From Escherichia coli (GTDB lineage Bacteria; Pseudomonadota; Gammaproteobacteria; Enterobacterales; Enterobacteriaceae): a stretch of 64,000 nt of DNA. A program made the position numbers and the translations under genes. The notes beneath the pieces were generated by a model, which did no database searches, was not told the origin of the DNA, and saw only the letters and a program-made list of their open reading frames with translations. Numbering within the stretch: the stretch's first letter is position 1; each line of letters begins with the position of its first letter. The stretch is taken from assembly GCF_017348835.2 (NCBI RefSeq), contig NZ_CP071375.1; one strand, written 5' to 3'. Of the stretch, positions 22,756 to 28,461 are shown piece by piece.

Positions 22756-23006
22756 CTAGTGATAACCACGCGCGGTCATAAAATCCGTAATCGCTTTTTC
22801 TGCATCAATCAGCACCTGTTCCAGTGGCTGATTGGCATCGATATCAACCAGTTGTGCACCACCAAAGGTTAACTGTGGCGTTATGGCAATCTTCCTCGCC
22901 AGCGATTCCCGTTTATGGTCGGGTTTACGCGCGCAGGCAACTTCAAGGTCAACATTGAGTTTGATGACCAGATCAGGCTTATGGCTCGCCATCCAGTGAA
23001 ACGCTT
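22756..23006 (-). pseudogene. yghT: 3'-terminal remnant of a P-loop ATP-binding protein gene, truncated at its 5' end by the adjacent IS element
   Basis: Open frame (78 aa from first Met; frame stays open up to the IS boundary) that stops 48 bp after pitB; position matches yghT of K-12; upstream part of the gene is replaced by the IS inverted repeat at 23007. Confidence 0.55.
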
Positions 23007-23060
23007 TGAACCGCCCCGGAAATCCTGGAGACTAAACTCCCTGAGAAAGAGGTAAACAGG

Positions 23061-23387
23061 ATGACTAAAAATACTCGTTTTTCCCCCGAAGTCCGTCAGC
23101 GGGCGATTCGTATGGTTCTGGAAAGTCAGGATGAATATGACTCACAGTGGGCGGCAATTTGTTCCATTGCCCCAAAGATTGGCTGTACGCCGGAGACTCT
23201 GCGTGTCTGGGTTCGCCAGCATGAGCGGGATACCGGGAGTGGTGATGGTGGACTCACCACCGCTGAACGTCAGCGTCTGAAAGAGCTGGAACGTGAAAAT
23301 CGTGAACTGCGCCGCAGTAACGATATCCTTCGCCAGGCTTCCGCTTATTTTGCGAAGGCGGAGTTCGACCGCCTCTGGAAAAAATAA
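23061..23387 (+). CDS. IS3-family transposase OrfA (HTH DNA-binding, leucine-zipper region)
   Basis: 108-aa [26 protein letters not shown]... typical of IS3-group OrfA. Confidence 0.85.
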
Positions 23388-24274
23388 TGCCACTGCTGGA
23401 TAAGCTGCGTGAGCAGTACGGGGTCGGACCGGTATGCAGCGAACTGCATATTGCCCCGTCAACGTATTACCATTGTCAGCAACAGCGACATCATCCGGAT
23501 AAACGCAGTGCCCGTGCGCAGCACGATGACTGGCTGAAGAAAGAGATACAGCGCGTATACGATGAAAATCACCAGGTATACGGTGTGCGTAAAGTCTGGC
23601 GTCAGTTGTTACGGGAAGGTATCAGAGTGGCCAGATGCACTGTGGCACGTCTCATGGCAGTTATGGGACTTGCCGGTGTTCTCCGGGGTAAAAAGGTCCG
23701 CACTACCGTCAGCCGGAAAGCCGTTGCCGCATGCGACCGCGTAAACCGTCAGTTCGTGGCAGAACGTCCAGACCAGTTGTGGGTGGCTGATTTTACCTGG
23801 GTAAGCACATGGCAGGGCTTCGTTTATGTGGCGTTCATCATTGATGTGTTCGCCGGATACATCGTGGGATGGCAGGTCTCATCATCCATGGAAACAACAT
23901 TCGTGCTGGATGCACTGGAGCAGGCGTTGTGGGCCCGTCGGCCGTCCGGCACAATCCATCACAGTGATAAAGGTTCTCAGTATGTATCGCTGGCCTACAC
24001 GCAGCGGCTTAAGGAAGCCGGATTACTGGCATCAACAGGGAGTACTGGCGACTCGTATGACAACGCGATGGCTGAGAGCATCAATGGTCTTTACAAAGCG
24101 GAGGTAATACACCGTAAGAGCTGGAAAAACCGGACAGAAGTGGAACTGGCCACACTAACGTGGGTGGACTGGTATAACAATCGACGATTGCTGGAAAGGC
24201 TGGGCCATATTCCTCCGGCAGAAGCAGAAAAAGCTTATTATGCTTCCATCGGAAATAATGATCTGGCAGCCTGA
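23387..24274 (+). CDS. IS3-family transposase OrfB (DDE catalytic domain; normally expressed as OrfAB fusion by -1 frameshift)
   Basis: 295-aa ORF overlapping OrfA stop in -1 frame; DDE-type integrase-core features (…HSDKGSQYVS…); A-rich run ggaaaaaataatg at the overlap. Confidence 0.85.
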   Translation: MPLLDKLREQYGVGPVCSELHIAPSTYYHCQQQRHHPDKRSARAQHDDWLKKEIQRVYDENHQVYGVRKVWRQLLREGIRVARCTVARLMAVMGLAGVLRGKKVRTTVSRKAVAACDRVNRQFVAERPDQLWVADFTWVSTWQGFVYVAFIIDVFAGYIVGWQVSSSMETTFVLDALEQALWARRPSGTIHHSDKGSQYVSLAYTQRLKEAGLLASTGSTGDSYDNAMAESINGLYKAEVIHRKSWKNRTEVELATLTWVDWYNNRRLLERLGHIPPAEAEKAYYASIGNNDLAA

Positions 24275-24366
24275 GTTCACAGATAAAACACTCTCCAGGA
24301 AACCCGGGGCGGTTCAGTATAATGCCACTGCATAACTGATTCCCATTTCGTAGAGGCTGTTAACTC

Positions 24367-24398
24367 TGTATCAAAGTCCTGACAAAGGACTGTATCAA
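24367..24398. promoter_or_regulatory. Operator-like composite repeat upstream of the 534-aa orphan gene
   Basis: tgtatcaa AGTCCT gacaa AGGACT gtatcaa: 6-bp palindromic arms flanked by direct tgtatcaa repeats, about 50 bp upstream of the ATG; function inferred only. Confidence 0.3.
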
Positions 24399-24445
24399 GT
24401 TTCTCTACTGAAACAGCTATGCAATAGACGGAAGAATTTAACATT

Positions 24446-26132: not shown

Positions 26133-26729
26133 TTATGCGGCTTTACCATTAACAGATTCAGCCACAAGAACGACAGCGTGTCTGTTTCGCTCAGGATGTT
26201 CACTCCAGATTTCTGATTCCGGGATGCTTTTCCCGTCATAACTGATCCGTTCGCCATCAAACGGGTAATACCGTGCGGAATCAGTATCTAAAATAAACAC
26301 CTTCAGATTCGTTGAACGACGCGCAATATGCTGCCAGAGAGCTTTACCTCCTTCATATTGCTCGTTATCACTTAATAGTACAACGCCCGCTTTTGTGACT
26401 ATCGTTTCATAAACAAACGTTGCAAGACCAACATCACGTACAGCGCCATCGACAACAATCCCTTCAATCTGAGCAACATCCTGTTCTTCCCAGAATTTCT
26501 GGACAAACACGCCTTCAAGCCGGGGACGACGCTGAAGCTCCAGAGTGGCAACAACCTTATGGCGAACATCACCATCAATAACAGAAGGTGCAGCTTCGAT
26601 TACCGCAGCAAACGGAGTCTTTGGATCCCAGATGATCTGGTAAAGCACGCCCTGAATAGTTACTCCATCCAGTATCGAAAAACGACGAGCTACAGTAGCA
26701 GGGGAGTAAGACATTGGAATTACAGCCAT
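26133..26729 (-). CDS. hypothetical protein, about 198 aa (orphan accessory gene)
   Basis: Track ORF 26133..26759 starts at a GTG; the downstream ATG at 26729 (MAVIPMSYSPATVARR) is preceded by a good Shine-Dalgarno (agagggga) and is preferred; soluble protein with no recognisable motif; same strand as integrase. Confidence 0.55.
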   Translation of the reverse strand: MAVIPMSYSPATVARRFSILDGVTIQGVLYQIIWDPKTPFAAVIEAAPSVIDGDVRHKVVATLELQRRPRLEGVFVQKFWEEQDVAQIEGIVVDGAVRDVGLATFVYETIVTKAGVVLLSDNEQYEGGKALWQHIARRSTNLKVFILDTDSARYYPFDGERISYDGKSIPESEIWSEHPERNRHAVVLVAESVNGKAA

Positions 26730-26858
26730 TTTTGAATCCCCTCTGAGTAATACCGGCACGAAAATTTACCTCAATAATTATAGTAAACAATACAAGAACC
26801 AAGTGCATCAACAATACCCATCAATTGTACACAATTCGTACAGCGACCAGGAACTCCC

Positions 26859-28175
26859 TCACCTTCTGCCAAACAGATTGACAACATTATTGCCTGTTTG
26901 CTGTTGATAGTTATTAACCCGGTCCTCCCAGATCTCAAGTGCTCTGCGTTTTTCTGGCAAATAATCGTATCGATCATAATGTTTTGAACTGACATCGTTC
27001 AACGCATGATTTTGAATACGATCGCGGATTTCCTTACTGATCCCAGCTTCTCCCATTAACGTTTTACAGGTCCGACGTAAGTCACGTGCTGTAAAAATTT
27101 TAAAGTCAGGATTAAAAGCCCGGAAATACATGATAGCGCGAGCCAGACTGTCCGTACGAACCGGACGCTTACCATTAGTCGAAAGTGGAAAAATGTAAGG
27201 GCTGGATTTTTCTTTTGTTAACTCCTGCACACAGGATAATTCCTGTAATGCTGATTCAGTCAACGGTATCAAATGCTCTCGTTTATTTTTAGAGACATCA
27301 GCAGTCACCAGCAGCGTTTTTTGTTGAAAATCAACATCACACCACTGACTGGCGATCATTTCGAAGGGACGTTGCCCTCCGGTATAGATACAGAATCGGA
27401 TCAAATGTTGCATCAATAATCCAACGTTGGTTGCTTCAGCAAAATGTTCCATTAGAAAACGCAACTCTTCAAGTGTCAGCCAGGTATCACCGACTTTTTC
27501 AGCAGATGACTGTTTCGGTATCACTGACACCGGATTTGCCTCCAGCCCAAAAGTAATCCCTGCACTTGTGTTCATCGGATCGTTATCTGCTTTCAGTCCA
27601 TAGTTAAATGCAGCCATCAGGTAAGAACGGATCCGGTTAGAGTGAACCACAGCACCACGCTGAATGATCCCGGCCAGGATATGTTTAATCTGTCCGGAAG
27701 TCACATCTTTAGCTTTAGTTTCACGGGGGATCACTGTATAGCATTCATTTTCAAGGCGTTTCAGAACATCCTGCCATGTCCTCTTATTATCAATTTTCAT
27801 TTTGTTAACATAACCATGAATCAATGCTTCAAATGAGCCCTGTGATTGATGGAGTTGTATCCGCTGCTGTTCTGCAAACTGTTGTCGTTCCAGTTCTGCC
27901 TGGGGATCCTTTCCTTCAATGAGCCAGGCACCATACTTTTTTGCCAGTTCATTCGCTGTGGCCAGTTTCATCTCAGGCCATATACCCAATTGAATGAATC
28001 TTTCTTTTTTCCCTTTTTCCACGTAATAGCGGAAATAGAAAATCTTGCTGCCAGAAGACTGAACTTTGACACCAAGTCGTCCAGTGCCACGTTGAGAGCT
28101 GTTGCTCCAGACATAGAACGATGTCTTTTTTGCTTTCAATGCTCGGATGGCTGTTTCAGTAAGATTGACGGCCAT
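26859..28175 (-). CDS. int: site-specific tyrosine recombinase, P4-type integrase (N-terminal arm-binding DUF4102-like domain)
   Basis: 438-aa ORF; N-terminus LTETAIRALKAKKTSFYVWSN...YFRYYVEKGKKERFIQLGIWPEMKLATANE matches the P4/CP4-57 integrase pattern; C-terminal R...HxxR...Y-type catalytic region (ARDLRRTCKT, HALNDVSSKHYDRYDY); Shine-Dalgarno aagagg upstream; adjacent to tRNA fragment. Confidence 0.85.
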   Translation of the reverse strand: MAVNLTETAIRALKAKKTSFYVWSNSSQRGTGRLGVKVQSSGSKIFYFRYYVEKGKKERFIQLGIWPEMKLATANELAKKYGAWLIEGKDPQAELERQQFAEQQRIQLHQSQGSFEALIHGYVNKMKIDNKRTWQDVLKRLENECYTVIPRETKAKDVTSGQIKHILAGIIQRGAVVHSNRIRSYLMAAFNYGLKADNDPMNTSAGITFGLEANPVSVIPKQSSAEKVGDTWLTLEELRFLMEHFAEATNVGLLMQHLIRFCIYTGGQRPFEMIASQWCDVDFQQKTLLVTADVSKNKREHLIPLTESALQELSCVQELTKEKSSPYIFPLSTNGKRPVRTDSLARAIMYFRAFNPDFKIFTARDLRRTCKTLMGEAGISKEIRDRIQNHALNDVSSKHYDRYDYLPEKRRALEIWEDRVNNYQQQTGNNVVNLFGRR

Positions 28176-28371
28176 AGAACCTCTTTTCTAAACCAGTAAC
28201 AATCAGAATAACTCGTGATTTTGGGTCAGGTAATGGGTCAGGTAACGATCGTACAATGAAGAAAAAACGGAACCAAGCGGAGACAGAGAAAATTACATAA
28301 TTCATTGATTATAAACAACTAATAAAGCAATCGCGAACAAACAAAAACAATATAGAACGAACTTGCCTCAT

Positions 28372-28418
28372 GACTCATAATCGCTTGGTCGCTGGTTCAA
28401 GTCCAGCAGGGGCCACCA
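28372..28418 (+). tRNA. ileX: tRNA-Ile2 (ileX, anticodon CAU/LAU) 3'-terminal 47-nt fragment; island attachment-site repeat, not a complete tRNA gene
   Basis: GACTCATAATCGCTTGGTCGCTGGTTCAAGTCCAGCAGGGGCCACCA matches the anticodon loop through CCA end of ileX as I recall it; the sequence 5' of it cannot pair with the acceptor 3' strand (no GGCCCCT), so the D-arm and 5' acceptor are absent. Confidence 0.7.
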
Positions 28419-28427
28419 GATACAGTA

Positions 28428-28461
28428 AAGGCTGACGAGAAATCGTCAGCCTTTTTCTTTT
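28428..28461. terminator. Rho-independent terminator (native ileX terminator, also downstream of yqjH)
   Basis: aaaggctgacga gaaa tcgtcagccttt hairpin followed by tttcttttc. Confidence 0.6.

Follow-up and report, generated by a model that had tools for sequence, protein, structure and literature searches.

An IS629-type element and a tRNA-Phe attachment core at the two joints of a strain-specific chromosomal inversion in Escherichia coli PE164

The analysed window (64,000 nucleotides) is the reverse complement of positions 630522-694521 of the E. coli PE164 chromosome NZ_CP114128.1 (100% match). PE164 is a published pig aEPEC/ExPEC hybrid strain, O108:H9 (PMC12233904). Two blocks of core chromosome were identified in the window by annotation and BLAST. 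The left block (1-22755, minus strand) begins with dkgA (126-953) and continues through the hyb operon to gss and pitB (21208-22707). The right block (28472-64000, plus strand) comprises nfeF (yqjH, 28472-29236), nfeR, aer, patA and the following genes up to yqjG (62893-63879) in K-12 order and orientation. The blocks are separated first by a 1,310-bp IS3-family element (23007-24316), then by island DNA of 4.05 kb (24317-28371) and finally by the 3' half of ileX, 47 nt long (28372-28418). ARAGORN detected no intact tRNA gene in the window.

In gene order and strands the left block is the mirror image of K-12, and window positions 17579-23007 align in reverse with K-12 3,140,000-3,134,572 (BLAST, 97.3% identity). 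The right block, of which positions 28372-36698 align forward with K-12 3,215,627-3,224,000 (BLAST, about 98%), is the flank untouched by the inversion. The reversal of the one block and the K-12 orientation of the other, yqjH through yqjG, had both been recognized in an earlier reading made from the sequence only, and its estimate of 80-90 kb between yghT and ileX in K-12 agrees with the measured distance: the breakpoints lie at K-12 3,134,572-4, within yghT, and at 3,215,627, which is base 30 of ileX, and are 81.06 kb apart. The left block is the left part of an 81-kb inverted segment that runs on past the window edge to rpoD-mug-ileX. According to the annotation, the nfeF-side flank and the pheV/yqgA-side flank share one orientation, whereas the 81-kb block between them has the opposite one. 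Thus a chance pattern is ruled out. The whole inverted block measures 93.6 kb: core chromosome from yghT' to ileX accounts for 81.1 kb and ileX-island DNA for 12 kb, and the near-joint IS is also part of it. This near joint was found in 1 of 5,426 complete E. coli genomes. That PE164 carries a real, strain-specific inversion, both relative to K-12 and relative to its nearest relative F2_81, is confirmed.

GC skew was also examined for separate evidence that the strand had switched recently. It changes from +0.037 left of the joint to -0.001 right of it, a contrast too weak for this purpose (p = 0.048), and it was given no weight.

At the left breakpoint, a 3' remnant of yghT (22756-23006, minus strand) comprises 251 nt corresponding to K-12 3,134,574-3,134,824 and is annotated by PGAP as a pseudogene ('thymidylate kinase, missing N-terminus'). 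The N-terminal 442 nt of the gene are missing from the entire PE164 genome. The cut falls exactly at the end of the IS, and the truncation point is identical in PE164 and F2_81, whose sequences have 99.988% identity over 16 kb (2 mismatches). A first anchor query for relocated copies of yghS, 5' yghT and glcD gave an ambiguous number of places, and a cleaner anchor was used. This query has one place only in PE164 and in F2_81; thus the three sequences are absent throughout both genomes and have not moved elsewhere. PE164 and F2_81 have also both lost the region of the glc and type II secretion genes. F2_81 has rpoD-mug-ileX in the uninverted state, and its yghT'-IRL joint, identical to that of PE164, abuts a pheV island. 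This joint already exists in an uninverted chromosome. Most simply read, yghT was truncated, and about 24 kb up to pheV were lost, before the inversion took place.

The insertion sequence at the near joint (23007-24316, plus strand) has the ends TGAACCGCCCCGG...CCGGGGCGGTTCA. Its length of 1,310 bp and its ends, with terminal inverted repeats starting TGAACCGCCCCGG, fit the IS629/IS1203 type of the IS3 family, and the matching element is labelled IS629/IS1203 family in the annotation of other genomes. In the list of open reading frames orfA (23061-23387) and orfB (23387-24274) overlap and are linked by a programmed -1 frameshift. Consistent with this, PGAP calls the element 'IS3 family transposase, programmed frameshift', and the Rfam ALIL pseudoknot is present at 23342-23458 (120 bits; gathering score 50). 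The PE164 genome contains more than 30 copies of the element. Compared with F2_81 and K-12, the breakpoints coincide with the ends of this copy: yghT homology stops at its left end and island homology resumes at 24317. No other genome has an IS at the 24316/24317 site, and 24317 is the exact position from which F2_81 and other strains are homologous again. The element has no 3-bp target-site duplication, its flanks being CTT and GTA. This indicates that it marks a recombinant or deletion joint and not a simple insertion.

The island DNA to the right of the IS (24317-28371) is the integrase-proximal arm of an ileX island. It encodes a hypothetical 534-aa protein (24446-26050, plus strand), a hypothetical 198-aa protein (26133-26729, minus strand) and a tyrosine integrase (26859-28175, minus strand) matching NF007246 and Xer-type recombinase models. 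The two hypothetical proteins gave nothing in NCBIfam and PADLOC scans. From exactly 24317 the arm is 100% identical to F2_81, and it is collinear with strain C3. Sequence comparison identified the adjacent 47 nt (28372-28418, plus strand) as a displaced ileX 3' half, which extends from the anticodon loop to CCA and has a K-12-type T arm; it is the attR of the ileX island. Intact ileX, with an island-type T arm, lies at 751715-751790 of the record, 85 kb away and in inverted orientation. Hence the locus has what defines a tRNA island, i. e. a displaced 3' repeat of an intact tRNA gene and an integrase (start at 28175) beside one att site. In F2_81 and C3 the entire island is located between the ileX 3' fragment and ileX. 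Of this island PE164 lacks the remainder, which measures about 19-28 kb in relatives. Genome-wide searches found neither the island segment left of 24317 nor the pheV-island DNA that adjoins the IS in F2_81. Altogether about 50-60 kb of island DNA which would be kept under a simple inversion are missing from PE164.

At the far end of the inverted block the order is ileX(+), DUF4942, DUF957, DUF5983', IS1 and a TcdA/B-like gene, followed by a 48-nt pheV 3' half, a 9.2-kb element and pheV(-). More than 20 other genomes carry ileX to the TcdA/B-like gene as one uninterrupted stretch, and LF82 and MS1170 have pheV-type elements with which the 9.2-kb element is collinear. One nucleotide is deleted in the displaced pheV half, and the identical deletion occurs in the 22-nt core of the C3 and FORC 064 ileX islands and in the C7 pheV, which is 75 nt long; this indicates that the far joint was formed in the tRNA-Phe att core. 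The sister strains C3 (uninverted) and C7 (inverted) differ by the att-core exchange alone. Both of their joints lie within the 22-nt core, and the flanking sequence is exchanged exactly there. In PE164 the far joint alone remains at the att core, whereas the partner joint on the island side is deleted.

The sequence-only reading had explained the synteny break by one exchange: an IS inside the ileX island would have recombined with an inverted copy located in yghT, a gene otherwise intact, and the reciprocal joint (5' yghT-IS-island-ileX) would still be present. This would account for an IS without target duplication at the joint and for the orientations and the distance as first described. 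However, a chimeric query in which 5' yghT was joined to the right end of the IS was covered by none of the 5,426 genomes, and PE164 lacks yghS, 5' yghT and glcD. Nor is a second IS629, inverted to the first, annotated anywhere from the near joint to the att core at the far end of the block. Unless the assembly misses sequence, the absent 5' yghT-IS joint and the absent genes refute such a single exchange, and we regard it as extremely improbable. The proposed IS-by-IS inversion is thus partly supported: a real inversion with an IS lacking a target duplication at the joint stands, but the single exchange between two IS copies with a surviving reciprocal joint does not, and the place expected for an inverted IS partner is taken by the tRNA-Phe att core by pheV.

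One further copy of the element, here called IS(b), lies at 767657-768966 of the record, 15 kb past ileX. It was rejected as the reciprocal partner, as it is in direct orientation and has unrelated flanks; these (ATG and CTC) are no complement to the CTT and GTA of the joint IS.

We consider it fairly probable that the structure arose in an F2_81/C3-like ancestor as the combined outcome of two reciprocal exchanges, one between IS copies and one between the att core and pheV. This ancestor would already have possessed the IS629 copy joining the yghT 3' end to the pheV island. A second IS629, whose existence we infer, would have entered the ileX island at 24316/24317 in inverted orientation to the yghT' copy, and homologous recombination between the two copies would have followed. 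In the other exchange, the tRNA-Phe att core of the ileX island would have recombined with the pheV 3' end. The two exchanges commute: the first would invert the segment, and the other, then acting on direct repeats, would delete 50-60 kb of the intervening island DNA together with the reciprocal IS joint. Last, the 9.2-kb element would have integrated into pheV. Either exchange may have come first, and the enzymes involved may have been RecA or an integrase. It counts against this model that the postulated IS copy at 24316/24317 is present in no genome and that an intermediate strain is lacking among the genomes. The crossover would also have to be confined to the first 140 nt of the 1,310-nt IS, a chance of about 11% if crossovers were uniform.

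The alleles of the IS copies were compared as well. The joint IS has a common allele, shared at 100% identity with other copies of F2_81 and with copies of FORC 064 and C7. From the yghT' copy of F2_81 it is distinguished by 14 sites (nt 141-1151), a difference that recombination with a further copy would be expected to leave. Judged from these sites, the joint IS may be a chimera with at most the left 140 nt derived from the old yghT' copy; gene conversion is compatible as well. The alleles show recombination at the IS and give no order for the two exchanges. At 1127/1128/1151 IS(b) of PE164 and the yghT' copy of F2_81 have alleles in common.

Alternatively, the exchange between att core and pheV alone could have inverted the segment, after which the resident IS629 at yghT' deleted the roughly 60 kb that separated its right end from 24317. 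Such a deletion would be one-ended and adjacent, driven by the transposase (or assisted by IEE), and would involve no second IS. By this, no unseen IS copy is needed and the missing target duplication is explained. The required inversion is documented by itself in C7 and FORC 064, and IS629 is behind many genomic deletions in E. coli O157 (PMC9943667). Yet the joint IS should then equal the yghT' copy of F2_81, whereas it differs from it at the 14 sites. As the two strains otherwise have 2 mismatches in 16 kb, an extra long gene conversion would be required. We think that this course of events is unlikely.

The near joint could also be an assembly artefact, i. e. a wrong path through the 1.3-kb IS repeat in a chromosome that is truly collinear with F2_81. 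There are more than 30 IS copies in PE164, the joint occurs in one assembly only, and the record is a version 2. The published methods describe Illumina reads and Unicycler for 29 other strains; on PE164 the paper contains no statement about sequencing platform or assembly, and it mentions no inversion (PMC12233904). However, a flip caused by a repeat presupposes inverted copies of that repeat at both ends, whereas no copy exists at the far joint. The far joint lies in a 48-nt att sequence, which can be spanned even by short reads, and is independently plausible, since the same joint is present in C7. The far-end adjacencies across IS1, IS200C and IS(b) match the order in other genomes. Moreover, the DNA that an uninverted chromosome would need, namely the island segment left of 24317 and the F2_81 pheV-island DNA, is absent from the assembly. 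An artefact therefore appears very unlikely to us.

Recombination between IS copies is the commonest origin of large rearrangements in E. coli, and IS-mediated chromosomal inversions and deletions were described in the long-term evolution experiment (Raeside et al. 2014, PMC4173774). PE164 resembles these cases in the large intra-replichore inversion, the multicopy IS without target duplication at the joint, the deletion of neighbouring DNA and a lineage with actively expanding IS. Unlike them, it has an IS at only one of the two joints, the other being a tRNA att core, and thus one IS-by-IS crossover is not sufficient for the structure. With the IS629-associated deletions of EHEC, known from the literature on the IS-excision enhancer (IEE; PMC9943667), PE164 shares the IS type, the loss of adjacent DNA and the cut of yghT at the IS end. 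The IS alleles of PE164, however, favour homologous exchange between copies over end-joining by transposase or IEE.

A chromosomal inversion between inverted att sites has been reported for the integrase of pTN3 in Thermococcus (Cossu et al. 2017, PMC5495485). Similarly, a 22-nt tRNA-Phe core in inverted orientation to pheV is the site of the far joint of PE164 and of both joints that distinguish C3 and C7. Unlike in the pTN3 type, the island-side partner joint of PE164 is deleted. Integrases of the lambda type act on inverted att sites as well. A homology of 22 nt is probably too short for efficient RecA recombination, and an integrase may have been involved.

The ileX island itself is similar to islands with CP4/P4-type integrases. 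It shares with them the tRNA site at ileX, the 47-nt displaced 3' half, the adjacent tyrosine integrase and, in relatives, the end module cbtA/cbeA-DUF5983-DUF957-DUF4942. Unlike those islands, the island of PE164 is split, with the integrase arm by nfeF and the ileX-proximal arm about 86 kb off and inverted. In P4-type islands the integrase lies downstream of the intact tRNA gene, whereas the PE164 integrase reads away from the displaced tRNA half.

The inversion in PE164 is an undescribed instance of a well-known process and, as such, an ordinary strain-specific event. The synteny break read from the raw sequence is a genuine inversion for which a one-step explanation is incomplete, and its value is mostly bookkeeping. 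About 81 kb, among them the sigma-70/primase operon and the topoisomerase IV genes, are flipped relative to the replication fork, and island DNA was lost too. The interval between pheV and ileX includes rpsU-dnaG-rpoD and parC/parE as well as tolC and the hyb operon. It is conceivable, though rather doubtful, that this interval (80-105 kb) is a recurrently flipping segment in island-bearing E. coli, turned by an integrase acting on the inverted 22-nt core in the widespread ileX island. PE164 would then represent a flip that was later trimmed by IS629, and each flip would swap the pheV 3' end for a core that is one acceptor-stem base short, the state found in C7, where pheV has 75 nt. Island modules and att cores that lie inverted at ileX and pheV may make the interval flip repeatedly in unrelated strains, and repeated flips can mislead synteny-based typing and assembly checks.

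In E. coli PE164 the window is found with 100% identity on the minus strand of the chromosome (NZ_CP114128.1), so a record coordinate equals 694522 minus the window coordinate. The source of PE164 is given as pig, diarrhoea and blood, Nanjing, and the strain was published as an O108:H9 aEPEC/ExPEC hybrid (PMC12233904). From the left end of the window to 22707 the annotated genes are dkgA, yqhD, yqhC, yghB, metC, exbBD, yghA, yqhA, gpr, yghX, yghW, hybO-G, yghU, gss and pitB, all on strands opposite to those in K-12 and in reversed order; from 28472 to the right end nfeF (yqjH), nfeR, aer, patA, ygjH, ebg and further genes up to yqjG follow in K-12 order. 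In BLAST, window 17579-23007 aligned with K-12 3,140,000-3,134,572 in reverse (97.3% identity) and window 28372-36698 with K-12 3,215,627-3,224,000 in forward direction. BLAST, gene order and strands thus bear out the sequence-only reading that two K-12 blocks are joined here in opposite orientations. The distance of 80-90 kb between yghT and ileX given there was correct as well because the K-12 breakpoints, inside yghT and at base 30 of ileX, are 81.06 kb apart.

The joint starts with yghT', the final 251 nt of yghT (22756-23006, minus strand). It is followed by an IS3-family element of 1,310 bp (23007-24316) with the ends TGAACCGCCCCGG...CCGGGGCGGTTCA. This element has orfA and orfB with an annotated programmed frameshift and an ALIL pseudoknot (120 bits), and the identical element is labelled IS629/IS1203 family in the annotation of other genomes. 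Its 3-bp flanks, CTT and GTA, differ; therefore it does not represent a simple insertion. The integrase end of a genomic island (24317-28371) comes next, encoding hypothetical proteins of 534 aa (24446-26050, plus strand) and 198 aa (26133-26729, minus strand) and, adjoining these, a 438-aa tyrosine integrase. The two hypothetical proteins had no matches in NCBIfam or PADLOC, and their genes are 100% conserved across several unrelated lineages. The joint ends with the displaced 3' half of ileX (28372-28418), and according to ARAGORN the window contains no intact tRNA. The complete ileX gene of PE164 (16716-16791 in L002, the stretch at the far end of the inverted block) carries the T arm GTTGGTTCAAACCCAAC instead of GCTGGTTCAAGTCCAGC of K-12, with compensating stem changes, whereas the displaced fragment beside nfeF kept the K-12-type T arm. 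This indicates that the island supplied a new tRNA 3' half.

Among 5,426 complete E. coli genomes the near joint is covered by PE164 alone, and the joint of yghT' with the IS is common to PE164 and F2_81 only (NZ_CP043542.1; pig, Australia). The two strains are nearly clonal, with 2 mismatches in 16 kb. F2_81 has the uninverted arrangement: after nfeF there are the ileX fragment, the integrase and a 32.7-kb island with DUF4942 at its end; ileX, mug and rpoD come next in K-12 direction, and from about 81 kb onward gss, pitB, yghT', the IS, a 33-kb pheV island and pheV. The yghT' breakpoint is identical in both strains. An uninverted relative with the same breakpoint indicates that the inversion is restricted to the PE164 lineage and that the IS at yghT' predates it. 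In addition, F2_81 contains an IS629 in the ygjQ-ygjR spacer (44611-45920 in the F2_81 stretch L005; the PE164 spacer is at window ~48885-48962) and an IS4 between mug and rpoD. Both are missing in PE164, so IS movement has been ongoing since the strains diverged.

A chimeric query of K-12 yghS, 5' yghT (3-bp target included) and the IS right end was covered by no genome. Furthermore, an anchor specific for PE164 and F2_81, combined with yghS-5' yghT and glcD probes, gave one place only in both strains, which means that both are without yghS, 5' yghT and glcD, the only absence probes used (from K-12 3,126,522-3,134,572). By the place count the same holds for the O157:H16 strain 98-3133. By position, this implies that the core between pheV and yghT was lost, together with the glc operon and gsp/sslE type II secretion genes that it contains; in K-12 the stretch leading from 5' yghT via glc and gsp in the direction of pheV measures about 24 kb. 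In F2_81 the IS right end adjoins pheV-island DNA. The simplest reading is that this loss came before the inversion; alternatively, the region may have been lost independently in PE164 and F2_81. The island segment that all other carriers have left of 24317 was not found in PE164 either (the search gave full-length matches at 99.5-100% identity, which included F2_81 and did not include PE164), nor was the DNA of the pheV island to which the IS is joined in F2_81. With C3 or F2_81 as the model, 19-28 kb of the ileX island and about 33 kb of the pheV island are lost. The proposed IS-mediated inversion stands in that the inversion is real and an IS lies at the joint; the one-step exchange between two IS copies with a surviving reciprocal joint (5' yghT-IS) is refuted, as no genome has this joint and 5' yghT is absent.

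In record orientation, the inverted block of PE164 extends through rpoD and mug to ileX (record 751715-751790). Beyond ileX there are DUF4942, DUF957, a truncated DUF5983, IS1, a small ORF and an 8.9-kb gene with a TcdA/TcdB glycosyltransferase domain (L002 19555-28491 = record 754554-763490), which presumably resembles LifA/Efa1 and lies between IS1 and a tRNA-Phe core. A 48-nt tRNA-Phe 3' half (L002 28758-28806), a 9.2-kb element and pheV follow, and beyond pheV yqgA, speC and the rest of the outer flank in outer-flank orientation. The 9.2-kb element comprises a truncated TraG, IS200C, a cold-shock-domain gene, a truncated integrase, IS(b), TraI and an integrase. IS(b), a second IS629 (L002 32658-33967), has no target duplication and truncates an integrase gene. 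It was rejected as recombination partner, since it lies in the same orientation as the joint IS and the flanks of the two copies are unrelated; the annotation shows no IS629 from the near joint to ileX. More than 20 other genomes have ileX through the whole TcdA/B-like gene as one contiguous stretch (99.8-99.9% identity), and the 9.2-kb element is collinear with the tRNA-Phe elements of LF82 and MS1170. Thus collinearity breaks exactly in the tRNA-Phe fragment, and the inverted block spans record 670,206 to ~763,757 (93.6 kb), with a K-12-equivalent core of 81.1 kb. In more than 20 genomes the TcdA/B-like gene accompanies the island arm next to ileX; F2_81 is without it, apparently having lost it by recombination between two tandem DUF5983-DUF957-DUF4942 modules.

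C3 has the complete ileX island, uninverted: the integrase arm, about 19 kb ending in cbtA-DUF5983-DUF957-DUF4942, a 22-nt tRNA-Phe 3' core (TTCGATTCCGAGTCC-GGCACCA; ~24370-24392 in the C3 stretch L014, NZ_CP010119.1 2357000-2400000), and then the TcdA/B-like gene, IS1, DUF5983'-DUF957-DUF4942 and ileX. Compared with pheV the core lacks one base, and a hairpin follows it. In C7, a sister of C3, the pheV-ileX interval is inverted (~24624-24910 in the C7 stretch L013, NZ_CP010240.1 2350000-2399000, and 15061-15135 in the C7 stretch L015). One joint connects DUF4942 and the core with yghD and the gsp, sslE and glc genes; at the other the TcdA/B-like gene is directly joined to a 75-nt pheV with the one-base deletion of the core. 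C3 and C7 are cow strains; the whole interval differs in orientation between them, with both joints in the 22-nt core. The base missing from C7 pheV (L015 15061-15135) is in the 3' acceptor-stem strand (CCGGGCACCA -> CCGGCACCA), a loss best read as pheV having taken over the island att core. FORC 064 has an inversion of the C7 kind and, judging from hit strands and coordinates, CD45 is probably inverted too. The homology at the C3/C7 joints is only ~22-27 nt, which suggests that the flip was made by an integrase rather than RecA. In Thermococcus an element's own integrase was shown to invert DNA between inverted att sites (PMC5495485).

The displaced 48-nt pheV half of PE164 shares the one-base deletion of the core; behind it come the hairpin and the TcdA/B-like gene, as in C3. 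This indicates that PE164 passed through a far joint of the C7 type: in its ancestor pheV would have been fused to the island core, and the 9.2-kb element would then have integrated into the fused pheV, restoring a 76-nt gene and displacing the defective 3' half. The far joint, a 48-nt sequence with a match in an independent genome, also makes an assembly artefact very unlikely. PE164 does contain more than 30 copies of the 1.3-kb IS, its RefSeq assembly is at version 2, and the methods of PMC12233904 give neither sequencing platform nor assembly route for PE164 itself (Illumina NovaSeq and Unicycler were used for 29 other strains). However, a repeat-induced flip requires an identical inverted repeat at both ends, and the assembly lacks the DNA that an uninverted structure would need.

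In sequence, the joint IS is the same as the common allele of the F2_81 ygjQ/ygjR copy, FORC 064 and C7. From the F2_81 copy at the same yghT' joint it differs at 14 sites, all within nt 141-1151. Between near-clonal strains such a difference requires that IS copies recombined here in one of the two lineages or in both, and it fits a chimera with at most its first 140 nt derived from the old yghT' copy and the remainder from another one. PE164 IS(b) and the F2_81 yghT' IS (4487-5796 in the F2_81 stretch L007), whose flanks are unrelated, share a rare allele (1127T, 1128G, 1151C) that none of six other IS629 copies examined has.

We consider it probable that two exchanges, one between IS copies and one between the island att core and pheV, best explain the PE164 inversion. 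The ancestor would have combined a C3-type ileX island with the yghT'-IS-pheV island joint of F2_81, and an IS629 would have inserted at 24316/24317 in opposite orientation; such insertions are frequent in this lineage (more than 25 copies per strain in PE164 and F2_81, at partly different sites). The order of the exchanges is interchangeable. If the IS exchange came first, it would invert the segment, and the att exchange would then remove a composite island bordered by direct tRNA-Phe repeats, with the pheV integrase at one end and the DUF4942 module at the other. In the reverse order, with the att exchange first as in C7, that exchange would invert the segment, and the IS exchange on direct repeats would then delete the island DNA. 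Either order would give the observed product with the reciprocal IS joint erased. No second IS copy is needed if an att-core inversion was followed by an adjacent deletion, of transposase or IEE type, made by the resident IS, yet the 14 allele differences would then call for an extra gene conversion, and we regard this course as rather unlikely.

In E. coli, large rearrangements are most commonly inversions and deletions between IS copies (PMC4173774), and polymorphism and deletion caused by IS629 are well known (PMC9943667). The word 'inversion' is absent from the PE164 paper (PMC12233904). The PE164 inversion is an undescribed instance that combines known processes and points to no new mechanism: an ordinary, IS-associated rearrangement, for which the initial observation was confirmed and its interpretation partly supported. 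It deserves follow-up for one aspect: the pheV-ileX interval has flipped recurrently, possibly through an integrase, in C3/C7, FORC 064 and PE164.
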